Source of the DNA: Acidobacteriota bacterium
GTDB taxonomy: Bacteria; Acidobacteriota; Vicinamibacteria; Marinacidobacterales; Marinacidobacteraceae
Assembly: GCA_022822745.1 (NCBI GenBank)
Contig: JAJEAO010000005.1
Coordinates: 17,831 to 81,830, forward strand
Direction: 5' to 3'
Length of the DNA stretch: 64,000 bases
Part shown: positions 9,933 to 36,436 of the stretch, piece by piece
How the letters are laid out: every line of letters starts with the position of its first letter
Numbering within the stretch: position 1 is the stretch's first letter
Program-made: the position numbers and the translations under genes
Notes under the pieces: model-generated
What the model was told of the DNA's origin: nothing
The model's database searches: none
What the model saw: only the letters and a program-made list of their open reading frames with translations

Positions 9933-12900
9933 GCGACGAGCGATCCGGACTCCGGTCGGTGACTGAGCGGTCCGTCACGCCTCGACGCCCAACGGCCCGG
10001 TACAGCGAACCCGGTGAGTCTCGCACCGACGTAGTCCCGGATGGGGAGGCGCGACGGCGCATCCGCAAGAACCTGGAGCGCAACTTCCTCGTGGAGGCGG
10101 GGGCGGGCTCAGGCAAGACGAAGTCGCTGGTGGACCGCATGGTGGCTCTGGTGAGCAGCGGCGCCTGTCAGGTGGAGGACATCGCAGCGGTTACCTTCAC
10201 GCGCATGGCTGCAGCGGAACTCCGCCAGCGCTTCCAGGAGGAACTGGAGAAGAAAATCGAGTGCGCGCACAAGCGCTCCCAAGCGGATGATCGGAAGCGC
10301 CTCGAACGAGCGCTCCGGAACATCCACCAGGCGTTTCTCGGAACCATCCACGCCTTCTGCGCCAGGCTGCTGCGCGAGCGACTGGTGGAGGCAGGGCTGG
10401 CTCCGGATTTCCGGGAACTGGAGGAGACCGAAGCGGAGCGCTCGAAGCAGGTGTTCTGGAACGACTTCCTGGAGAAGCTGGCGGTGAATGAGGATCCCGT
10501 TCTGCTCAAGCTCAAGCGCTTGGGGATCCGCCCCAGCACGCTTCAGGGAGCCTTCGGCAGCTTGGTCGAGAATCCGGACGTGGATTTCGTCGCCGAGAGG
10601 GTCGAGCGGCCGGATCCGGATGATGTCGCGGCGCTACGGGCCGAATTCGATGCTCTCCTCTACCGGGCAGAGGTGATGATGGAGGGCCTGCAGCCCAAGG
10701 AAGGGTGGAAGTCCCTTGGACAGGGATTCCGCACGGCGCTGTATTGGCACCGGTCGCCGAACTGGAAGGATCCGGCGGTCTTCTTTGAGGTCGTTGCCAA
10801 GTTTCACAGGATCAGAGAGAAGGAGACTGGGAAAATCCTGACGCTGAAACGGTGGGCCCGCACTCGCTCCGGCCAAAAAGAGGCGAAGAAGCTGGCCGAG
10901 GATTCCCAGGCCTTCGGGTGTAAGGCGGACAAACTGCTACGACAGTGGTGGGCTTACCGATATCCGGTGGCGGTGGATCTGGCCGGCAGGGCGGCGGAAG
11001 AGTACGCGTACGAGCGGAAGGCTCGGGGCGAGGTCACGTTCGACGATTTGCTCGTTTTCTCCACCGAGCTGCTTCGCAAGAACGACGAGGCGCGCCGCGA
11101 TCTGGGGCGCCGCTACCCGCGGATCCTCGTGGACGAGTTCCAGGACACCGATCCGCTGCAGGCCGAGATCCTGCTTCTCCTGTCCAGCGACCCCGAGTCG
11201 GGTGACGACTGGAGGAGAGTCACTCCCCGGCCCGGTTCGCTCTTCGTCGTCGGTGATCCCAAGCAGAGCATCTACCGATTCCGCCGCGCCGACATCTCGC
11301 TCTACGAGATGGTGAAGCGCCGCTTCAAGAAGTTCGGCGAGGTCCTGCGCCTCGAAGCGAACTTCCGCTCGCTGCCGGACTTCGAGAAACTGGTGGAGGG
11401 CGTCTTCAACGATGGGCAGCACTTCCCGAGCGCGAGTTCAGACCGCCAGGCCTCGTTTGCGCCGCTGCGGGCCCAGATGCAAGGGCGCGGTCTGCTGGCC
11501 GCCTACCGGGTTCAGGGCGCGAACCAGGACGATGTCGCCGAGGACGATGCCGCCCGCATCGCCTCTGAGATTTCGCGGCGGGTTCGATCGGGAGAGCGTC
11601 GGCCCGGCGCGTTCATGATCCTGACCGGGCGACGCAAGTTCCTGTCGGTTTATGTTCGAGCGCTCGAGAGGCGCAACCTCCCGGTCGAGGTGTCGGGCGC
11701 GGGCGTGGGTTTCGAGGACGAGTCGCGGGCGTTTCTGACGCTCTTCCGGTGTCTGGCGGACCCCCAGCACGAAGTGCACGTTCTTTCGGTGTTGACTGGG
11801 CCCTTCTTTGGCATGACCCTCGACCGCATCGTGCGGTACAGGGACAGCGGTGGCTCGCTTGTCGCCGATTGCCGGCCGGAGGGCGACTGCGAGGTCGCAG
11901 AGGCGATCGGGAGTCTCCACCGGTGGTGGTGTCTTGCGCGCCGCGAGCCCGCGGACATCACGGCCGAGAGGCTCGTGGAGAAGATCGGCCTCTTCCCCCT
12001 CGCGGCGGCGGCGCCCTTGGGAGGGATGCGTGCCGGGACTCTGGCGTACCTGCTGGACGCCGTGCGGGACCGGGCGCGAGCGGGCGATTCCTCGCTCGCG
12101 GGCGCCGTGGACGCCATGGAGACAGCGCTCGAAAACAAGGAAGCCGAACCGTCGTTGATCCCGACGCAGCCCGATTGCGTGCGCGTCCTGAATCTGCACC
12201 GCGCCAAGGGTCTCGAAGCTGACGTGGTCTTCCTGGCCGCGCCGTTTGGCGCCTCCGATCCCGATCCGCGGATGCACGTGTCGCGCCGTGAAAAGGGCAG
12301 CCCCGAAGGCCATCTGGCCGTCGGACTCAAGGTCCGATTTTCGTGGGAGACCATCGCGCAGCCCCTCGACTGGGAGGAGAAGAAGCGCAAGGAGGTGGAG
12401 TTCGCGAAGGCGGAACAGATCCGGCTGCTCTATGTCGCGGCGACGCGCGCAAGGCACGAACTCTGGATCGCGTGCCGCCCCGCCGAGATGTCCTGGCAGT
12501 CGAGGCCGTCACCGTGGGCGGATGTGGAGGAATGGGTGGTGGAGAGGGCCGGCAAGGACCGAGAGGCGGACTCGTCGTGCCACTGCGTTGTCCTGGACGA
12601 ACTGCCGAAGGACTGCGTGCCCAAGCCGGCCCGCCTGGAACCCGGGGAGGGTCTCACCGGGAGGATCAGGGCTGCCAAGGCGGGGGTGCGTCGGAGCCGC
12701 AAGGCGACCTACGCCGTGGAGAAGGTCACGGACCTGGCGAAACAGAACCGGCCGGAGGGAGAGGTCAACGTCTCCACGGAGCCGAGGGAGGCCGATACGG
12801 ACGACAAGGCTCACGCGCCGCTCGATCCCGGAACCAGGGGACGCGAATGGGGCACCGTAGTGCACGAGGTGCTTGCCGAGGCGGGCGAGGGGGTCGAAAG

Positions 12901-30235: not shown

Positions 30236-30276
30236 TCCGCTTGCGGACTGGAATCCGGCATACGGAGGCTCTCCTC

Positions 30277-30561
30277 ATGGCCACTTTCGATGTGCGTGAA
30301 GCCCGGACGCACCTCTCCCGTCTCCTGCTGGACGCCGAGAGGGGAAGGGAAGTCGTGATCGCCCGGAACGGCAGACCCATCGCCCGGCTCGTTCCGCTCC
30401 GGCCCCGGGGGAGGCGGCAGTTCGGCGCCCTCCGCGGTCAGGTCCGGGTTCCGGACCGCTTCTTCGATCCGCTTCCCGAGAGCGAGCTGGAGCGGTGGGA
30501 GGAAGAGGTCGGCGCGGCTCCTGCCGGACACTCCCGCGTGGCTGGAGTGGCTGACGAGTAG
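30277..30561 (+). CDS. Phd/YefM-type antitoxin (VapB-like), apparently orphan
   Basis: MATFDVREARTHLSRLL...VVIARNGRPIARLVPL; C-terminus FFDPLPESELERWEE. No PIN-domain ORF is adjacent. Confidence 0.65.
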   Translation: MATFDVREARTHLSRLLLDAERGREVVIARNGRPIARLVPLRPRGRRQFGALRGQVRVPDRFFDPLPESELERWEEEVGAAPAGHSRVAGVADE

Positions 30562-30651: not shown

Positions 30652-31563
30652 TCAGTCGCTGAAGCGGAGGGCCGGGAGCGGCGAACCGGTGAGGCGCTCG
30701 TAGATCGAGAGGTACCGCTCGGTCGTGCCGCGGACCACCCGGTCGGGCAGGTGCGGCGGGGGCGGCTCCTTGTTCCAGTCGAGCGTGTCGAGGTAGTCCC
30801 GCACGTACTGCTTGTCGAAGCTGGCCTGAAGTCGCCCGGGGGCGTAGTCGTCGGCGGGCCAGAACCGCGAGGAATCCGGCGTGAGCACCTCGTCGATGAG
30901 ATGGAGCTCGCCGTCCTCGTCGAGGCCGAACTCGAACTTCGTGTCCGCGATGATGATGCCCCGCTCGGCGGCCCATTCCACCCCGCTCTCGTAGATGTCC
31001 CGCGAGACCCGGTGGAGGCGCTCGGTCAGCTCGCGACCGAGTTCGTTCGCCATGTACTCCTCGCTGACGTTGATGTCGTGCCCTTCGGTGGCCTTGGTGG
31101 CGGGCGTGAACAGCGACTCGGGGAACCGTTCGGCGAGCTGCATCCCCTTCGGGAGCTCGATGCCGCACACGCCGCCCTCCCGCTGGTACTCCCTCCATCC
31201 GGAGCCGTAGAGGAACCCCCGCATCACGCACTCGAACGGCACCGGGCTGAGCTTCCGGACCAGCATGGAGCGACCCTCGAGCACCGCCTTCCCCGGCGCC
31301 AGCGCATCGGGGTATTCCCCGACGTCGTCCGAGATCAGGTGGTTGCTGACGATTCCGGCGGTCTTGCGCAGCCAGAACCCGCTGATGCTGTTCAGCACCC
31401 GGCCCTTGTCCGGGATGCCCTCGGGGAGCACGACATCGAAGGCCGAGACCCGGTCGGTCGTGACGAGCAGGAGGTTGCCTTCCACCTCGTAGATGTCGCG
31501 GACCTTGCCGCGATTGAGGAGGGTGGCGCCCTCGAGGTCGGTGTGGCGAATGGCTTGGGACAT
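30652..31563 (-). CDS. purC: phosphoribosylaminoimidazole-succinocarboxamide synthase
   Basis: Starts MSQAIRHTDLEG...GKVRDIYEV; SAICAR synthetase blocks throughout. The track ORF extends upstream to 31647 as low-complexity read-through. Confidence 0.9.
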   Translation of the reverse strand: MSQAIRHTDLEGATLLNRGKVRDIYEVEGNLLLVTTDRVSAFDVVLPEGIPDKGRVLNSISGFWLRKTAGIVSNHLISDDVGEYPDALAPGKAVLEGRSMLVRKLSPVPFECVMRGFLYGSGWREYQREGGVCGIELPKGMQLAERFPESLFTPATKATEGHDINVSEEYMANELGRELTERLHRVSRDIYESGVEWAAERGIIIADTKFEFGLDEDGELHLIDEVLTPDSSRFWPADDYAPGRLQASFDKQYVRDYLDTLDWNKEPPPPHLPDRVVRGTTERYLSIYERLTGSPLPALRFSD

Positions 31564-31573
31564 CAACCGAATT

Positions 31574-32518
31574 CTACGGTCTGCGGCGGCCGGCGCCGCG
31601 CCGCGCCTCCCCGTCCTCGCCGCTGCGGCGATCCAGACGGGCTTCATGGCCCGACCCGGGCCGGAGCAGCACGCGGGCGGCGGGGCCCTCGCCGAATTCG
31701 GCGAACCGGACCGCAGCGCGCTCTTCCCAGTCGTCTCCGTTCCCCGTCTCCTCGTCCTCGTCGGGCTCGCCCGCGGCCGAGACCAGGGCGGCGGCCTCGG
31801 CGGGAAGCGTCAGGCGCACCGAGCCGTCCGCCGATCGGAGTTCCCAGACGCCCCGGGGAGCGGGCGCCGCGGCGGACCGAGCCGTCACCGTGACCCGGCC
31901 GTCGCCCGAGACCGCCCGAACCTGCTGGAGCCGACCGGCGAGGCCGATTCTTCCGTCCGCCGTCTCCGCGACGAAGCGACCCTCGAGATCCTTCCCGTCG
32001 ATCCGTCCGTCTCCGGTTCGGAGTTGCGCCGGGGAGGCCCCGGCGCGAAGCGACTCGGCTTCGATCGGCCCGCTCGCCGTCACCGCCTCCACCGGGCCGG
32101 TCAGCCCGGACAGCTCGATGCGTCCATCCCCGGTCCACGCCTTGATTGCCGTTCCCGGGGCGGTGCGGATCGTGAGCCGCAGCCCGACGGACTCCCCGAG
32201 CCGGAAGGCGCCGCCGAGCAGGTTCCGGCCGCGGATCCGGAGCGTTTCCGCATCCTCCCCGTCGGTCTGGACGACGATCGCCGGAAGGGCGGAGGCTGCC
32301 GCCTCGCGCGAAAGCGCCCTCGACCACCGCTCGACTTCGATCTCCACTTCGGGGAGCGCGTGCTCCCGGATCTCGAGATCCCCCTGATCGAGTCGGATCT
32401 CGATCGAGGGAGCGGCGGGAAGCCGCCGGATCTCCACCGATGTCTCGACGACTGGTTCGACGCACCCCGCGGTCAGCGAGAGCGCCACGGCGGGCGTCGT
32501 GAGCCAGCGACAGCTCAT
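31574..32518 (-). CDS. DUF4097-like beta-strand-repeat lipoprotein
   Basis: Lipobox LSLTAGC; repeated short G-D-G-R/S-I/V beta-strand units. ATGA overlap with the upstream stop. Confidence 0.6.
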   Translation of the reverse strand: MSCRWLTTPAVALSLTAGCVEPVVETSVEIRRLPAAPSIEIRLDQGDLEIREHALPEVEIEVERWSRALSREAAASALPAIVVQTDGEDAETLRIRGRNLLGGAFRLGESVGLRLTIRTAPGTAIKAWTGDGRIELSGLTGPVEAVTASGPIEAESLRAGASPAQLRTGDGRIDGKDLEGRFVAETADGRIGLAGRLQQVRAVSGDGRVTVTARSAAAPAPRGVWELRSADGSVRLTLPAEAAALVSAAGEPDEDEETGNGDDWEERAAVRFAEFGEGPAARVLLRPGSGHEARLDRRSGEDGEARRGAGRRRP

Positions 32519-34347
32519 GGCTTCTCCTGCGGGTCTTCGGGAGTCGTGATCCGGCCAGACGAGGCGCCCCGGGGGGGCTCTCCTCCCGAAATCCCCACGA
32601 CCAGGATCTCGCCCCCCTCGGTGGTCGCGAGAACCGGAGGGCCCCCGCCGCCGACCGAGGCGACGAGCCTGGAGTCATCCGCGGACGATTCGAGCTCGAA
32701 GTGGCTCGTCACGTCCTCCGGCTCGGCGCGCACTGCGAGCTGGAAGGACCCCGCCGTCGGCAGTTCGAGGTGGATGTCTCCGCCGCGGCTCGAAACCGAG
32801 ATGCTCCCTCCGACTCCCGAAGTCGAGACCCGCAGGTCTCCATCGCCGCCGGAGAGGCGCAGCGCGCGAGCGAAGGTCTCGACCGACGCCATCCCGTCAC
32901 CGACCGAGAGGACTGCGGCGCCGCCGAGCCCGCGGGCGAAGAGGTCGCCCCCGCCGGTCACGACGGTGAGCGCGCCGGCTACCTGCTCGACGATCACATC
33001 CCCCGATCCCGCATCGAGGTCCACCGCTCCTTCGGCGTCTCGCACCTCGATCAGGGCGCGTTCGCTTCGGATCTCCACCGGCCCGAGGACGCGTTCCACG
33101 ACCACCGGGCCGAAACTGGCGGCCACCTTCGCCGCCCCGCCGATCCGCCGCAGCGTCACGGGGAGGAACCGGCTGTTGACCTGGACCGCCTTCGCCGCGT
33201 CCTCGATCGCGATCACGCCGGTCGGGCCGACAGCCTCGACGGCGACGACCCCGGCCGCTCCGGCGATCCGCACCGGGCCTCCATGGGAATCCACCGAGAC
33301 CGCGTCGCCGGCGGCGGCCACATCCACGACCGCCCGGTGCGCCCGCACCGTGACCGCGCCCGCGATGTCGTCGGCGACGATGGCCCCGTCCCGGCCGGCG
33401 AGATGGGCGGCGCCGGCGGCGCCCCGAACCTCGACCGGGCCGTGCGAGCCCTCGGCGGTCACCGCGGCGAAGGCGCCCTCGACGCGGACCGGCCCCCGGC
33501 CGGTGACCGCCGAGACGCTCACGTCGGGCGGAACCTCGAGGACGAGGTCGAAAGCGGCGTCCGACTCGCCCTCGTCCACGACGGTGACGCGGAGCCGGCG
33601 GCCTTCCCGTGAGTCTTCCGTCCGATCTCCCCCGGGGGAGACGACCAGGCGCGCCTCGTCGGCGCGCCGCTCGGCGAGCGCCGGCGTCGCCGCCCAGATC
33701 CGCTTTCTCAGCGTGATCCGTGCGACTCGCGGCGCCTCTTCGACCTCGCGCGTCTCGAGGTTGGTCGCCGAAGCGTCCGCGCCCCCAGCCTCGGTCTCCG
33801 AGGCCTCCGCCCGGGGCGGCGAAGAGGCCTCGACCACGATGCCTCCGGCATCCAGCTCCACGACGAGATCCGTGATTTCCGGGGGCAGGGGCGCCTCGAG
33901 CTCCGTCGCGAAGGCGTGCTGCGGAACCGGGTTGACCTGCTCGCGCACCCAGCGATGGACCTCGTGGACCCGGTCCGCGACGCCCCAGCGCTCCACGATC
34001 TGGCGGCCGAGGCTGAGCCCCAGTCCGACGAACAGGACGAAGAGCAGCAGCAGGATCTCGAAGAACCCGAAACGCGCCCTGCCGGTCACGAATCGCTGAA
34101 CGATCTTGCCGAGCCCCCACGCGATCAGGACGACCGGCCACCAGACCGAGGCCACCGGGATCAGGTCCACCAGGACGACGAGGAGACGGGCGCCGTGGAC
34201 ATTGACGGCCAGGGCGAGCGCGCCGACGAGGATCAGGACGATGCCGAGCGCGGTGGCGCATCCGGAGCCCCGCCGCGGCTTCTCTTCCGGCGCCGGATCG
34301 GACGCCGCTTCGGTCGGACGCGCTGCTGGCGTCGTCGTATCGCTCAT
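32515..34347 (-). CDS. membrane protein: LiaF-like N-terminal TM region + DUF4097-like beta-helical repeats (YvlB-like)
   Basis: N-terminus ALGIVLILVGALALAVN...WWPVVLIAWGLG; long Gly/Val/Asp repeat region (GPVEV, GDVIV, GPVRI...). Confidence 0.6.
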   Translation of the reverse strand: MSDTTTPAARPTEAASDPAPEEKPRRGSGCATALGIVLILVGALALAVNVHGARLLVVLVDLIPVASVWWPVVLIAWGLGKIVQRFVTGRARFGFFEILLLLFVLFVGLGLSLGRQIVERWGVADRVHEVHRWVREQVNPVPQHAFATELEAPLPPEITDLVVELDAGGIVVEASSPPRAEASETEAGGADASATNLETREVEEAPRVARITLRKRIWAATPALAERRADEARLVVSPGGDRTEDSREGRRLRVTVVDEGESDAAFDLVLEVPPDVSVSAVTGRGPVRVEGAFAAVTAEGSHGPVEVRGAAGAAHLAGRDGAIVADDIAGAVTVRAHRAVVDVAAAGDAVSVDSHGGPVRIAGAAGVVAVEAVGPTGVIAIEDAAKAVQVNSRFLPVTLRRIGGAAKVAASFGPVVVERVLGPVEIRSERALIEVRDAEGAVDLDAGSGDVIVEQVAGALTVVTGGGDLFARGLGGAAVLSVGDGMASVETFARALRLSGGDGDLRVSTSGVGGSISVSSRGGDIHLELPTAGSFQLAVRAEPEDVTSHFELESSADDSRLVASVGGGGPPVLATTEGGEILVVGISGGEPPRGASSGRITTPEDPQEKP

Positions 34348-34372
34348 GGGCTCGGTGGGCGGGTGGCGCGGC

Positions 34373-34603
34373 TCAGGTGGAGGGTGGCGGCTCGGGCGGT
34401 TGCGGCGCCCGGGGGCGAGGCCGGCGGCTGTCGCTCACCATCTTCACGCCGATGGCAATGAGGATCAGCGGCCACCAGTCCCGCAGGGAACGGAGGATGT
34501 CGCGGATGTCGAAGAGGTCCAGGCTGTTCGCGAGAAACACGGCGCCGATGACGATCAGCACGATGCCGGGCGTCGCGGCGCTGCGACGGGACCGATGGCT
34601 CAT
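34373..34603 (-). CDS. small membrane protein with LiaF/LiaI-like TM hairpin
   Basis: PGIVLIVIGAVFLANSL...WWPLILIAIGV; ATGA overlap with the upstream gene. Confidence 0.5.
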   Translation of the reverse strand: MSHRSRRSAATPGIVLIVIGAVFLANSLDLFDIRDILRSLRDWWPLILIAIGVKMVSDSRRPRPRAPQPPEPPPST

Positions 34604-35157
34604 GAGGTCCTTTCTCCTTCCGCGGTCGAGCCGCGATCCGGGTCGGCGCCGTTCGCCTCGATTTCGATGTCTTCATCCGGCGCCGGCGGGGGAGGGGGGG
34701 CTTCCGGCGCCGGTCGTCGGTTCACCAGCCCGGCGAACGCGGAGCCGTCGGGCACGATGGGCTGGCCGCGCAGCATCTGCACCCCGGCCCACACGAGGGC
34801 CAGCGGCCACAGGTGGATCACCCACGCGAACTCCTCCACCAGCGACAGCACGCCGACGGTTCCGGCGAACACGAGCCCCAGCGCCCACCGCCGGTCGAAC
34901 CCGATGTCCGGCTCCTCGCCGGCGGCCCGGGCGCGGACGCTCGCCTCGGTGACCCGGATCGCGTCCACGATCCCGAACAGCCAGACGAGCAGGAGGGCGG
35001 GCGCGGCGATGTTGGTGGCGTGGTGCACCGCTCCCTGCAGGAAGGCGAGGAAGCCCCCGGCGAGGGCGAAGCCGCGAGCCGTGGCCCCGGCGTAGAAGTG
35101 CCCCAGTCCGGGAAAGACAACCGAGAGGATCCCGGCGATGCCCGGAGAACGGTTCAT
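34600..35157 (-). CDS. integral membrane protein, unknown function
   Basis: 185 aa, 3-4 TM segments, Pro-rich acidic C-terminal tail. ATGA overlap with the anti-sigma stop. Confidence 0.5.
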   Translation of the reverse strand: MNRSPGIAGILSVVFPGLGHFYAGATARGFALAGGFLAFLQGAVHHATNIAAPALLLVWLFGIVDAIRVTEASVRARAAGEEPDIGFDRRWALGLVFAGTVGVLSLVEEFAWVIHLWPLALVWAGVQMLRGQPIVPDGSAFAGLVNRRPAPEAPPPPPAPDEDIEIEANGADPDRGSTAEGERTS

Positions 35158-35744
35158 GGCGCCACTCCTTCCACCGGAGGATTCGCAGGGTCGGGAGGAG
35201 TCTGCCGGGGGTCGTCCGGTGACGCCGGCCCCCGGGTCGCGCGCTCGAAGTCGCGAACGCGATCCTCGAACTCGACGATGCCTCCCTCGATGGCGACTCC
35301 CAGCGAGGCGCGAAGCAGCTCGAAGTCGTAGCGCGCCCGGTCGCTCTGCTGCGCCGCGATCTGACGCAGCCCGGCGATCGCGGCGGAGGCCTGCGGGAAC
35401 GCGGCGGCGAGATCCTTCACCGGGCCCGGCTGGAGGATCCCCACGACGAGCATCGCGGCGGCCGCCGCCGCCCAGGTCGGCCAGTAGGCGGTCCGCCGCC
35501 CGTAGAGCCTGCGGAATCGGGGCAGCGTGGCCGCGAGGATCCGCGCATCGAGGCCCGGCGCCGGCCGGGGGGCGGTGTCCCCGAAGTCGGCGAGCGCGCG
35601 ATGGATCCCCCGCATCTCTCCGTAGAGGCGGGCGAGGCGGGGGTTCGACGCCAGCTCCCCTCGCAGCGCCGCGGCGTCCTCGCTGCTCAGCTCCCCCGCG
35701 GCGAGAGCCGTCACCCGCGCTTCGGTGAACGGGTCGGTGGTCAT
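35154..35744 (-). CDS. anti-sigma factor (single TM)
   Basis: N-terminus MTTDPFTEARVTALAAGELSSEDAAALRGELASNP; one TM (AAAAAAMLVVGIL). ATGA overlap with the sigma-factor stop. Confidence 0.6.
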   Translation of the reverse strand: MTTDPFTEARVTALAAGELSSEDAAALRGELASNPRLARLYGEMRGIHRALADFGDTAPRPAPGLDARILAATLPRFRRLYGRRTAYWPTWAAAAAAMLVVGILQPGPVKDLAAAFPQASAAIAGLRQIAAQQSDRARYDFELLRASLGVAIEGGIVEFEDRVRDFERATRGPASPDDPRQTPPDPANPPVEGVAP

Positions 35745-36342
35745 CGGATCGCCCTCCGGCGGCGCGACGCGGCGCGGCCCGGTTTCGGGTGTTTCCCGGC
35801 GGCGACGGCCCGGCGCGCCCGGACCAGGGCGCGGCGCCCCCGGTGGATGCGGGACTTCACCGTCCCGAGGGGGATGCCCAGGCGCTCGGCGATCTCCGGG
35901 TAGCTGAAGTCCATCATGTCCCGGAGCAGGACCGGCTCGGCGAGCTCGGGCTGGATCTGGTCGAGGAGCCCCCGGACCAGCGCGGCTTCCTCGCGTCGCT
36001 CCGCGATGGACTCCGGACTCCACCACACCGGAACGCGGGTCTCGGGCGCGTCCTCCTCGGGGATCGTCAGTGGAGTCCGCGCCCGCTTGCGGTAGTGATC
36101 GATCCCGGCGTTCGTCGCCACCCGGCGGATCCACGCGCCCAGGGCGCCTCCGGAGGGCCGGTACGCCGGAAGGACAGTCAGGAGGCGCATGAAGATGTCC
36201 TGGGTGAGTTCGTCGGCGTCGTCGGGCGTGGCGGTGAAGCGATAGGCGATATGCCAGATGGGTTGTCGAAAGCGGCCCACGAACTCGCGCCAGGCCTCGG
36301 CGTTCCCGGCGAGACACTGGCTGGCGAGTTCGGCATCGGAGA
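35741..36342 (-). CDS. ECF-type (sigma-70 family) RNA polymerase sigma factor
   Basis: Region 2 (DADELTQDIFMRL; AWIRRVATNAGIDHYRKR) and region 4 HTH (DFSYPEIAERLGIPLGTVKSRIHRGRRAL). N-terminal boundary uncertain: there is no canonical in-frame start between the nrdR stop (36437) and region 2.1. Confidence 0.8.
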
Positions 36343-36436
36343 GTCCTCCGGTCGGGAAGTGTGGTGGCGCTTTCTGGTTCCCCCGGTGGCGCTTTCCCTT
36401 ACGCGACTTGCGCCGCAGCGGTTCTCGGTGGGGGGC

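Follow-up and report, generated by a model that had tools for sequence, protein, structure and literature searches.

Organization of the cluster

Six ORFs run in the same direction on the minus strand in a marine Vicinamibacteria acidobacterium (Ca. Marinacidobacterium-like), and the locus raises the question of whether they form one signalling unit and whether that unit belongs to an envelope-stress system already described. The features identified in the window (the whole 64-kb stretch of DNA that was analysed) are as follows.

36399 to 36424, minus strand: ECF-type promoter GAACC-N16-CGTAA (motif uniqueness, conservation across loci)
36356 to 36398, minus strand: 5′ leader of the cluster (nucleotide invariance; 3′ boundary approximate)
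35741 to 36355, minus strand: g1, ECF sigma factor (stop at 35741; 5′ boundary uncertain)
35154 to 35744, minus strand: g2, putative single-pass anti-sigma factor (position and remote homology)
34600 to 35157, minus strand: g3, 185-aa multi-TM protein (motifs, Pfam scores of orthologues)
34373 to 34603, minus strand: g4, 76-aa LiaI/LiaF-type two-helix hairpin protein (Pfam)
32515 to 34347, minus strand: g5, 610-aa LiaF-type hairpin and Toastrack (DUF4097) protein (Pfam, AF2, Foldseek)
31574 to 32518, minus strand: g6, 314-aa Toastrack lipoprotein (signal peptide, lipobox)

An earlier note on this DNA had described six minus-strand genes of these protein types flanked by ftcD, nrdR and purC. 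All six are present in the order claimed and the gene calls bear out the identity of the flanking genes, but the 5′ end given, position 36420, falls in the −35 element of the promoter and has no start codon. Neither a sigma-70-like promoter nor a credible terminator was seen in the cluster interior, which speaks for a single unit. The genes are tightly packed, with start/stop overlaps at most junctions.

The promoter (−35 GAAC, −10 CGT) follows the nrdR stop codon at a distance of 12 nt, and GAACC-N16-CGTAA has no second match in the 64-kb window (0.08 expected). In 74/74 acidobacterial loci that include the sigma gene, GAAC-N16-19-CGT precedes the sigma coding region, within about 220 nt and typically at 68–133 nt, against a background rate of 0.09 per 260 nt; an alignment of 15 loci has GAAC and CGT-A invariant. 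The leader carries a conserved GGGAGAA...GCGCCNCC block that is invariant at the nucleotide level (alignment A6). RNAalifold yields a weak consensus hairpin in which one pair has compensatory changes in 4 sequences. Compared with the closest relative (locus L007), the leader has 5 nonsynonymous to 2 synonymous changes, a substitution pattern that looks non-coding.

Overlapping start and stop codons

ATGA overlaps had been claimed for every junction. They are found at four of the five (sigma/anti-sigma, anti-sigma/g3, g3/g4 and g5/g6), the exception being g4/g5, where a gap of 25 nt separates the g4 stop (34373) from the g5 start (34347). The ATGA at the g5 start is the end of an out-of-frame 110-aa ORF (34344–34676), not that of g4. 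A survey of 24 orthologous locus records, from about 22 distinct genomes, showed an NTGA overlap kept in 24/24 records at the sigma/anti-sigma, anti-sigma/g3 and g5/g6 junctions, while g3/g4 and g4/g5 are variable, mostly with small gaps. According to the gene calls of three of these genomes, 4-nt overlaps occur at 12 of 15 junctions within the cluster, as against 5 of 25 for same-strand junctions elsewhere, and the ftcD/nrdR junction has a GTGA in common. The overlaps are therefore enriched in the cluster, yet for operons of this genome, with its 72% G+C, they are nothing out of the ordinary. They do imply translational coupling, as proposed, but not the strict stoichiometry of co-translation that had been read into them.

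Proteins encoded by the cluster

By its domain matches, g1 is a group-IV (ECF) sigma factor (Pfam Sigma70_r2, 9.6e-17, and r4_2, 1.8e-15; TIGR02937, 89.1 bits for a cutoff of 42.9). Among solved structures, mycobacterial SigE/SigH and B. subtilis SigW come closest to it. At its N-terminus the g2 product carries an anti-sigma domain devoid of zinc ligands (ELASNPRL in place of the HxxxCxxC motif), and further on a TM segment near residues 86–105 and an extracytoplasmic helical domain of roughly 90 aa with a DRxRD motif. Its Pfam search gave no match and the NCBIfam model NF052375 “antisigma” matched under its cutoff (6.3e-7); hhalign paired g2 of the window clade with zf-HC2-bearing orthologues at 94.7% (E 5.9e-8). 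Position and remote homology thus point to g2 as the anti-sigma factor of the window, and the zinc ligands have been lost at this locus or in its clade.

A LiaI/LiaF-type hairpin is found in each of the three membrane proteins g3, g4 and g5. The N-terminus of g3 carries a TM2/DUF6677-like PGxGxxYxG membrane segment and its C-terminus a LiaI-LiaF-type “WP” hairpin, motifs that are invariant in alignment A5. Pfam matches to g3 in the window are weak (LiaF-TM 0.07, TM2 0.09), whereas its orthologues at two distant loci (L029 and L037) match LiaI-LiaF-like_TM1 at 42–46 bits and carry in addition a B-box, which has been lost at this locus or in its clade. In the HMM check proposed for the LiaF-TM and DUF4097 families, g4, whose two termini are both basic, matches LiaI-LiaF-like_TM1 at 1.6e-13 (51 bits, cutoff 27) and LiaF-TM at 2.2e-9, and g5 matches DUF4097 with an E of 1.3e-9. 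The LiaF-TM score of g5 is 18.7 bits in the window and over the cutoff in orthologues. Beyond the hairpin, g5 has one more TM helix (its third), then a juxtamembrane helix and finally a Toastrack beta-helix of ~440 residues. The AF2 model (pLDDT 77.8 overall, >90 for residues 270–560) has three TM helices, this part being of low confidence (pLDDT 55–69); Foldseek gave 4qrk as best match, then 3pet and 4opw. The g6 protein has a signal peptide and a lipobox (LTAGC, Cys19) whose Cys is conserved. It is restricted to the Marinacidobacterium-like clade and is a lineage-specific addition to the cluster core.

Conservation across Acidobacteriota

The g5 profile retrieved 80 GTDB species loci which, with 6 others, gave 86 loci. 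The sigma gene is included in 74 of them, 2–3 kb upstream of g5 and on the same strand. ORFs of anti-sigma size, g3-like and g4-like lie between sigma and g5 in most of these 74 loci, and the flanks vary. At distant loci Pfam recognizes a zf-HC2 anti-sigma factor, a B-box plus LiaI-LiaF_TM1 protein, a LiaI-LiaF_TM1 protein and a LiaF-TM plus DUF4097 protein, and the order of the five genes is fixed across Acidobacteriota classes. As far as gene order and domains tell, a signalling operon that occurs throughout the acidobacterial phylum is represented here in its Vicinamibacteria (Ca. Marinacidobacterium-like) form. This kind of operon had already been catalogued by comparative genomics, which makes the finding a real but largely ordinary one.

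The catalogue entry is that of Ravi et al. 2024 (mSystems, Table S4 and Text S2.4; PMC11237479), who recorded the context in Granulicella mallensis and proposed Lia-like signalling via the linked sigma factor. Gene order and domain content of the listed context are the same as here; the loci L029 and L037, whose genes are homologous to those of the window, have exactly that architecture. The window clade differs from it by the missing zf-HC2 zinc ligands and g3 B-box and by its sixth gene, the Toastrack lipoprotein. The published string does not list the small hairpin gene (g4) separately, and a term search of the main text and supplement found no mention of the GAAC-N16-CGT promoter. In the Emticicia context from the same paper (sigma, anti-sigma-ZF+TM+HEAT, then two TM+Toastrack proteins, with DUF2089) an ECF pair is likewise followed by two Toastrack proteins, comparable to g5 and g6. 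The cluster has instead a short helical periplasmic anti-sigma domain, not HEAT repeats, no DUF2089 gene, and a LiaF hairpin and a lipid as anchors, not single TM helices.

Relationship to the Lia and Yvl systems

The cluster shares both signature domains with B. subtilis liaIH-liaGFSR and S. aureus vraTSR. In the Lia system the LiaI-LiaF-TM hairpin is found in LiaI and LiaF, and Toastrack in LiaF (DUF2154) and LiaG (DUF4097). The domain order of g5, TM region then Toastrack, is LiaF-like and the logic of the two systems is likely alike, with a transcriptional switch under the influence of a membrane protein. However, the switch is here an ECF sigma/anti-sigma pair, with no histidine kinase, response regulator or PspA homologue (LiaH). 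Since g5 has a hairpin and 1 TM helix where LiaF has a 4-TM region, its Toastrack domain is probably on the opposite face of the membrane. The match to the NCBIfam LiaG equivalog reached 37.8 bits, far under the cutoff of 285.

ECF control had been presented as a twist distinguishing the cluster from Bacillus yvlABCD/liaIHGF-type modules. It is none, because B. subtilis yvlABCD itself belongs to the core sigma-W regulon (PMC3498285) and is, like the cluster, a Toastrack (YvlB) operon under ECF sigma control. The differences lie elsewhere: in yvl, YvlC has a PspC domain and YvlB is a soluble protein that combines a SHOCT-like part with Toastrack, whereas the cluster has neither PspC nor SHOCT, and sigW-rsiW is located elsewhere in the genome, unlike the sigma/anti-sigma genes of the cluster. 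Domain profile searches detected no PspA/LiaH, PspC/YvlC, LiaSR or SHOCT among the cluster genes. Membership in the lia or yvl systems was rejected, as the first three are missing.

Proposed mechanism and alternatives

The proposal of an ECF pair driving a LiaF/LiaI-like plus DUF4097 module holds for domains, operon structure and conservation. With PspA and PspC missing, its “envelope stress” label rests on the analogy of two domains, so that such stress is a signal suggested by that analogy only. The reading we consider probable, with some reserve, is that of an acidobacterial sigma operon in which Toastrack and hairpin proteins control the anti-sigma factor and envelope perturbation releases sigma. 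In the resting state sigma would be held at the inner membrane by the anti-sigma factor, which would assemble with the hairpin proteins within the membrane. On the periplasmic side, the beta-helices of the g5 and g6 Toastrack domains would offer a surface for sensing or docking, and through it control the small periplasmic domain of the anti-sigma factor. Once released by an envelope perturbation, sigma would transcribe its own operon from the GAACC-N16-CGTAA promoter (positive autoregulation) and a further regulon. Such a scheme would parallel the control of LiaS by LiaF, with the sigma/anti-sigma pair replacing the two-component system.

A sensor role does not follow from operon membership: as genes of the same autoregulated operon, g3–g6 are sigma outputs by construction. 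It is accordingly conceivable, though on balance unlikely, that sigma and anti-sigma sense alone (regulated proteolysis of the anti-sigma factor would be one way) and that g3–g6 are induced effectors that stabilise or repair the envelope, like LiaI in Bacillus, with no regulation of sigma activity. LiaI-type hairpin proteins of the Lia system are effector anchors, and a regulatory phenotype is lacking for LiaG (PMC9239133); g6 was gained in one clade only, its distant homologues (JGI label “YvlB”) being stand-alone lipoproteins with no sigma nearby. The invariant anti-sigma/g3 overlap and the fixed order of the five genes are, however, seen more typically among subunits of a single complex than among outputs that can be exchanged, and the closest characterised LiaF-TM plus Toastrack proteins, LiaF and VraT, are regulators according to literature cited in PMC11237479.

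Less probable still is that the Toastrack domain of g5 lies beneath the membrane as a platform for a complex with the anti-sigma domain and sigma. This is the model of Ravi et al. 2024, who predict an intracellular location for Toastrack in general (PMC11237479), in contrast with the extracytoplasmic side predicted here; a LiaF-type region made of two hairpins (4 TM) would leave the C-terminus inside, and Pfam LiaF-TM covers much of the TM region of g5 orthologues. Yet one “WP” hairpin and one more helix make an odd number in g5, and its homologues in L026 and L027 have one N-terminal, signal-anchor TM. By the positive-inside rule, applied to 73 homologues together with the low-confidence TM model, the stretch that follows the last TM is placed outside (K+R 2.4/D+E 4.7, versus 2.5/0.3 at the N-terminus and 3.0/0.8 before the last TM), its charge being nearly neutral in the window's own clade (5 K+R vs 4 D+E). 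The paralogous g6, as a lipoprotein with a conserved lipobox, is exported, and Popp et al. 2022 described the DUF4097 domain of LiaG as extracellular. Both Toastrack domains are thus predicted to be periplasmic.

A decaying or rewired remnant, whose sigma has lost its start codon and is no longer properly translated while downstream genes are expressed by ftcD-nrdR read-through or at a basal level, seems quite improbable. From the upstream stop (36439) down to GTG 36280, the sole canonical in-frame start, the sigma frame has no ATG, GTG or TTG. Nor does it have any ATG/GTG/TTG/CTG/ATH between the promoter and that GTG, which is itself absent from L007; no terminator was seen in the nrdR–sigma interval. 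Coding constraint nevertheless starts near 36355–36337. The 20 codons upstream of V21 have, in the sigma frame, 4 synonymous to 2 nonsynonymous changes relative to L007, and the dN/dS of sigma is the lowest of the cluster (0.10, in a range of 0.10–0.37 for g1–g5). The promoter is intact, as are all six ORFs in three independent assemblies. The sigma ORF thus lacks a canonical start codon yet is under strong purifying selection; because of the missing codon, sigma expression is not to be presumed in this genome.

That the six genes are adjacent merely by inheritance of a housekeeping neighbourhood, as the synteny of ribD-...-nrdR-[cluster]-purC throughout the Marinacidobacterium-like clade might suggest, is effectively refuted by Terriglobia and other distant Acidobacteriota, where nrdR is often missing or on the opposite strand and purC mostly missing, and where the sigma-to-g5 block and its promoter are retained despite the differing flanks.

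Organization of the cluster and its junctions

Six consecutive ORFs (g1 to g6) lie on the minus strand of the window, whose G+C content is ~72%, between 31574 and ~36355. They are co-directional, as an earlier note on this DNA had claimed, and are flanked by the genes that it had named, ftcD and nrdR upstream and purC downstream. Their features, together with the candidate promoter in front of them, are:

36399-36424, minus strand: candidate ECF-type promoter GAACC-N16-CGTAA, 12 nt after the nrdR stop codon
stop at 35741, minus strand: g1, predicted sigma factor, 5′ end uncertain
35154-35744, minus strand: g2, predicted anti-sigma factor, 196 aa
34600-35157, minus strand: g3, multi-TM protein, 185 aa
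34373-34603, minus strand: g4, hairpin protein, 76 aa
32515-34347, minus strand: g5, LiaF-TM and Toastrack (DUF4097-type beta-helix) protein, 610 aa
31574-32518, minus strand: g6, predicted Toastrack lipoprotein, 314 aa

The start and stop codons overlap as ATGA at the junctions g1/g2, g2/g3, g3/g4 and g5/g6. The claim that every junction has this form fails at g4/g5, where a 25-nt spacer (34348-34372) separates the genes. An out-of-frame ORF of 110 aa (34344-34676, minus strand) runs from the 3′ end of g3 across g4; together with the start codon of g5 its TGA makes an “ATGA” that imitates a fifth overlap and probably explains the earlier claim. Its Arg/Pro-rich translation has no family match and it is taken to be non-coding. 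Overlaps of 4 nt, the commonest overlap class of prokaryotic operons, are also found close by (ftcD/nrdR, ligT/cinA). Stored gene calls for three related loci show them at 12 of 15 junctions within the cluster and at 5 of 25 same-strand junctions outside it (two GC3-based gene callers, which missed g2, g3 and g6, were dropped from this baseline). Conservation of the overlaps is more telling than this enrichment: NTGA is kept at the sigma/anti-sigma, anti-sigma/g3 and g5/g6 junctions in all 24 orthologous locus records (~22 distinct genomes), while the g3/g4 and g4/g5 junctions vary, mostly between overlaps and gaps of a few nucleotides. The retained overlaps support translational coupling but do not prove a fixed stoichiometry, so that of the “strict stoichiometric co-translation” postulated earlier only the co-translation is backed.

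Neither a sigma-70-like promoter nor a credible terminator was found within the cluster, and no family was matched in an Rfam scan of the window. The purC start codon follows the g6 stop codon at a distance of 10 nt on the same strand (31563-31574, minus strand), no terminator being detected in between, and purC may be co-transcribed with the cluster in this genome. The linkage is not conserved, since purC is on the opposite strand in most Marinacidobacterium-like relatives. Just past purC there is a gene for a PhdYeFM-type antitoxin (PF02604, 94 aa; ~30275-30560, plus strand; 11787-12071 in the related locus L004), with no obvious toxin partner in the gene calls.

Distribution in Acidobacteriota

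The nearest relatives of the window come from marine and KELL22 metagenomes. A contig scan with the single g5 protein found nothing, but scanning GTDB species genomes with a profile returned 127 loci with g5 relatives, of which 80, nearly all labelled Acidobacteriota, were kept. Word-indexed protein searches with g5 gave 6-7 relatives, a number set by the limits of the index for low-complexity, high-GC sequence and not by rarity. When nine window proteins were compared by tblastn with 86 fetched loci, all six genes were found in ~22 Marinacidobacterium-like genomes. A sigma homologue was present in 74 of the 86 loci, on the strand of the g5 homologue and 2-3 kb upstream of it; most of these 74 have three intervening ORFs of the sizes expected. 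Pfam searches on three distant loci identified, in order, a zf-HC2 anti-sigma factor, a B-box + LiaI-LiaF_TM1 protein, a LiaI-LiaF_TM1 protein and a LiaF-TM + DUF4097 protein. The distant loci have other flanking genes. A fixed gene block with differing flanks argues that the five-gene core is a functional unit conserved phylum-wide. No counterpart of g6 was detectable in the distant loci, apart from one weak intragenic match, and its remote homologues are stand-alone lipoproteins without a sigma gene nearby; g6 is a lineage-specific addition.

The sigma factor and its candidate promoter

The g1 product matches Sigma70_r2 (61 bits), r4_2 (56.7 bits) and TIGR02937 sigma70-ECF (89.1 bits, cutoff 42.9). 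With sigma-2 and sigma-4 as its only domains, it is assigned to the ECF (group IV) sigma factors. Its closest relatives of solved structure are SigE, SigH and SigW, and RpoE is also among its PDB relatives. No specific equivalog reached its cutoff (SigE PRK09647, 115.7 against 265), and DUF4097 or LiaF contexts are not mentioned in the main text of the ECF classification paper.

The sequence GAACC-N16-CGTAA occurs once in the whole window (0.08 matches expected). GAAC-N16-19-CGT precedes the sigma coding region in 74/74 loci, typically at 68-133 nt (background 0.09 per 260 nt), and GAAC and CGT-A are invariant in a 15-locus alignment. The fixed five-gene arrangement seen in most of these loci thus always stands behind an ECF-type promoter motif. 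AAC/CGT is the classical architecture of RpoE/SigW/SigE-type ECF promoters, and the cluster combines it, as −35 and −10 elements, with an overlapping anti-sigma gene. From this architecture we infer that g1 would use the promoter in front of its own gene, that is, positive autoregulation.

Initiation of sigma factor translation

An in-frame TTG or GTG is found 7-8 codons upstream of a conserved SDA[EQ]L in 17 of 20 orthologous loci. Upstream of the conserved N-terminal helix, no canonical start exists in the window genome (36280-36398, minus strand), in its closest relative L007 (5936-6070) or in L023 (5385-5660). The sole canonical in-frame start of the window, GTG 36280, would delete the conserved first helix if used, and reads GTC in L007 (codon 21). 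It is the start assigned in public gene calls, which wrongly shorten the sigma protein of this lineage to 179 aa, a point of caution for annotation.

Between the window and L007 the dN/dS of the sigma gene is 0.10, the lowest in the cluster. Read in the sigma frame, the changes in the 20 codons before V21 are 4 synonymous and 2 nonsynonymous; in an overlapping ATG frame the same changes count as 0 and 6, a comparison that rests on a small sample of six substitutions. This purifying selection on the N-terminal codons argues that the sigma ORF is translated despite the missing canonical start, a lead and not yet a result. The out-of-frame ATG (36336-36334) has a GGAGG 8 nt upstream, common to the window and L007, and sits within GAT-GCC (Asp-Ala) codons that are invariant in 15/15 aligned loci.

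A frameshift or assembly error was rejected given this invariance and the agreement of three independent assemblies. A programmed −1 frameshift from the ATG frame has no support, no slippery heptamer being visible by eye. The 5′ coordinate first proposed for the cluster, 36420, was wrong. The nearby CTG 36418 was rejected as a start: it falls between the −35 and −10 elements and is missing in L007, and the codons after it evolve as non-coding sequence. A metagenome scan for further sigma leaders returned 29 matches, all unrelated.

The leader (36340-36398, minus strand) is conserved at the nucleotide level with 14 other loci (GGGAGAA..GCGCCNCC; leader alignments A6 and A7), and the Asp codon of “SDA” is GAT in 15/15 loci despite the 72% G+C. 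RNAalifold predicts that the region of the usual TTG start forms a weak hairpin (CCGGGAG/TCCCCGG), one pair of which shows compensatory change in 4 sequences.

The predicted anti-sigma factor and the loss of zinc modules

No Pfam match was found in g2, zf-HC2 being absent even at E≤10, and its score against NCBIfam NF052375 (29.6 bits) is under the cutoff of 100. Alignment of the window clade (A8) to the zf-HC2-bearing clade (A9) with hhalign gave 94.7% and E 5.9e-8 over residues 1-93. By homology of this N-terminal domain, g2 is predicted to be a class I / ZAS (zf-HC2)-related anti-sigma factor. The zinc-binding motif H-x3-C-x2-C is replaced by E-LAS-N-PR-L in g2; its ligands are missing in 9/9 Marinacidobacterium-like sequences and invariant (H29, C33, C36) in the distant clade. 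The extracytoplasmic domain of ~90 residues has a conserved DRxRD motif and an invariant R162.

Terriglobia carry zinc modules in three proteins: zf-HC2 in the anti-sigma factor, a B-box in g3 and a Cys-rich N-terminus in g4. Only zf-HC2 is retained in soil Vicinamibacteria, and none of the three in the marine Marinacidobacterium-like clade. Comparison of the window with loci L026, L027, L029 and L037 indicates that these cytoplasmic modules were lost stepwise along the phylogeny.

Hairpin and Toastrack proteins

LiaI-LiaF-TM domains (PF18917 / PF22570) were recognized by a two-TM hairpin, a W-P motif and a score over the Pfam cutoff. All three are found in g4 (LiaI-LiaF-like_TM1, 51 bits against 27, E 1.6e-13). 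In the window g3 (14.4 bits) and g5 (18.7 bits, LiaF-TM) score under the cutoff; their orthologues in L029 and L037 reach 31-46 bits and the WP motif is invariant. The g3 protein, whose matches taken alone are weak, is orthologous to B-box + LiaI-LiaF_TM1 proteins of Terriglobia.

The Toastrack domain of g5 is identified with E 1.3e-9 (DUF4097). In its AF2 model (pLDDT 77.8) three TM helices and one juxtamembrane helix precede a beta-helix of ~440 residues with pLDDT >90. Among PDB structures it matches 4QRK, 3PET and 4OPW best, the first and last being Toastrack exemplars of Ravi et al. 2024 (PMC11237479). Although g6 stays under the Pfam cutoff (17.3 against 22.9 bits), its profile-profile match to g5 (98.1%, E 7e-14), the PF13349 carried by its homologues, a Foldseek match to 4qrk (5e-8) and the conserved lipobox Cys identify it as a Toastrack protein, within the DUF4097 / DUF2154 / DUF2807 group. 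The HMM placement suggested by the earlier note holds for DUF4097 in g5 and for the LiaF-type TM region in g4, holds for g6 by routes other than its own Pfam score, and stays under the cutoff for the TM part of g5 in the window. A signal peptide with lipobox (MSCRWLTTPAVALSLTAG-C19), whose Cys is conserved at 90% or more across a set of 35 orthologues and distant homologues, predicts that g6 is a lipoprotein.

The hairpin of g4 is N-in/C-in since the termini on both sides of it are basic. One hairpin and a third TM helix are found in g5, and its homologues in L026 and L027 have a single N-terminal TM.

Mean charged residues around the TM segments of g5 (73 homologues)
N-terminus: K+R 2.5; D+E 0.3
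before the last TM: K+R 3.0; D+E 0.8
after the last TM: K+R 2.4; D+E 4.7

The odd number of TM passes, this charge bias, the single-TM homologues and the export expected of g6 as a predicted lipoprotein together lead us to predict both Toastrack domains outside the cytoplasm. Our confidence is high for g6 and moderate for g5, whose modelled TM segments have low pLDDT and whose charge bias is near neutral in the window clade. The domains are predicted to adjoin the periplasmic ~90 residues of the anti-sigma factor. This topology differs from the generally intracellular Toastrack predicted by Ravi et al. (PMC11237479) and agrees with the extracellular DUF4097 of LiaG in Popp et al. (PMC9239133), sharpening a disagreement in the literature on which side of the cell membrane Toastrack is located.

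Relation to known systems and possible mechanism

Toastrack and LiaI/LiaF-TM are found widely and are associated with envelope stress; in Gram-positive pathogens, LiaF and VraT are important for resistance to daptomycin and cell-wall antibiotics. Both domains were defined by Ravi, Anantharaman, Aravind, Gennaro et al. 2024 (PMC11237479), whose Table S4 gives for Granulicella mallensis AciX8_0610 the context sigma -> anti-sigma+TM -> TM+LiaI-LiaF-TM -> LiaI-LiaF-TM+TM+Toastrack. They also list a B-box + LiaI-LiaF-TM protein of Acidobacterium capsulatum and suggest that, through the linked sigma factor, such systems work in the manner of the lia operon. The Table S4 gene order is reproduced on one strand in the window and in most of the 74 sigma-containing loci. 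The window is assigned to this context on the basis of its architecture and its homology to Acidobacteriaceae loci organized in the same way. This kind of gene context is thus already catalogued by comparative genomics; term searches of that paper found neither the phylum-wide promoter nor the topology argument. Particular to the window locus and its clade are an anti-sigma factor without HxxxCxxC ligands, a g3 without B-box and the added lipoprotein g6.

The earlier comparison with yvl and lia modules under an ECF pair is sound at the domain level, but the cluster is neither system proper. The Lia system (liaIHGFSR) has the PspA effector LiaH and the LiaS/LiaR two-component pair, whereas no PspA_IM30, HisKA/HATPase or response-regulator domain was found in the six proteins. 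In yvlABCD a PspC membrane protein stands beside a SHOCT-like + Toastrack protein; no PspC or SHOCT/DUF1707 was detected in g2-g6 at E≤0.01, nor in g2, g3 and g6 at E≤10. ECF control, presented earlier as the distinguishing feature, is not new for a Toastrack operon because yvlABCD belongs to the core sigma-W regulon (PMC3498285).

Domain content and operon logic back an envelope-stress-like module built on an ECF pair with LiaF/LiaI-like and DUF4097 proteins. The likeliest mechanism, held with moderate confidence, would be an autoregulated ECF switch in which a membrane complex of LiaF-type hairpin proteins gates the anti-sigma factor and periplasmic Toastrack surfaces form part of that complex. 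Its main rival takes g3-g6 as outputs only. A more far-reaching version of the gated switch seems improbable to us: the five-gene core would be a distinct, phylum-wide form of ECF sigma control, with three LiaI/LiaF-hairpin proteins and periplasmic Toastrack co-receptors gating a ZAS-derived anti-sigma factor and, in the marine clade, a sigma factor translated without a canonical start, by non-canonical initiation or by recoding, next to a newly gained Shine-Dalgarno sequence and out-of-frame AUG. If true, start-less translation would add a layer of translational control. The general picture of ECF signalling is unchanged, and the predicted periplasm-facing Toastrack domains with a ready reporter promoter offer a comparative system for what these domains sense.

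Further promoter-like motifs were seen in related loci. The sequence GAACCTSGGGTTCGCTGCCGGCGTTT is conserved ~2 kb past g6, near the purC divergent region (L012 6017, L014 11746, L016 11741, L025 11741, plus strand). This strict match was dropped, with no convincing ORF behind it; it may represent a regulon promoter or an RNA gene, or have arisen by chance. A second strict match, GAACT-N16-CGTA[AC], lies inside the sigma 3′ end at L029 5901 and at the same position (+528 from the sigma start) in ~25 Acidobacteriaceae loci. It encodes ELARLLQR there, and may either arise from the coding sequence by coincidence or mark an internal promoter serving the anti-sigma gene and those that follow it.
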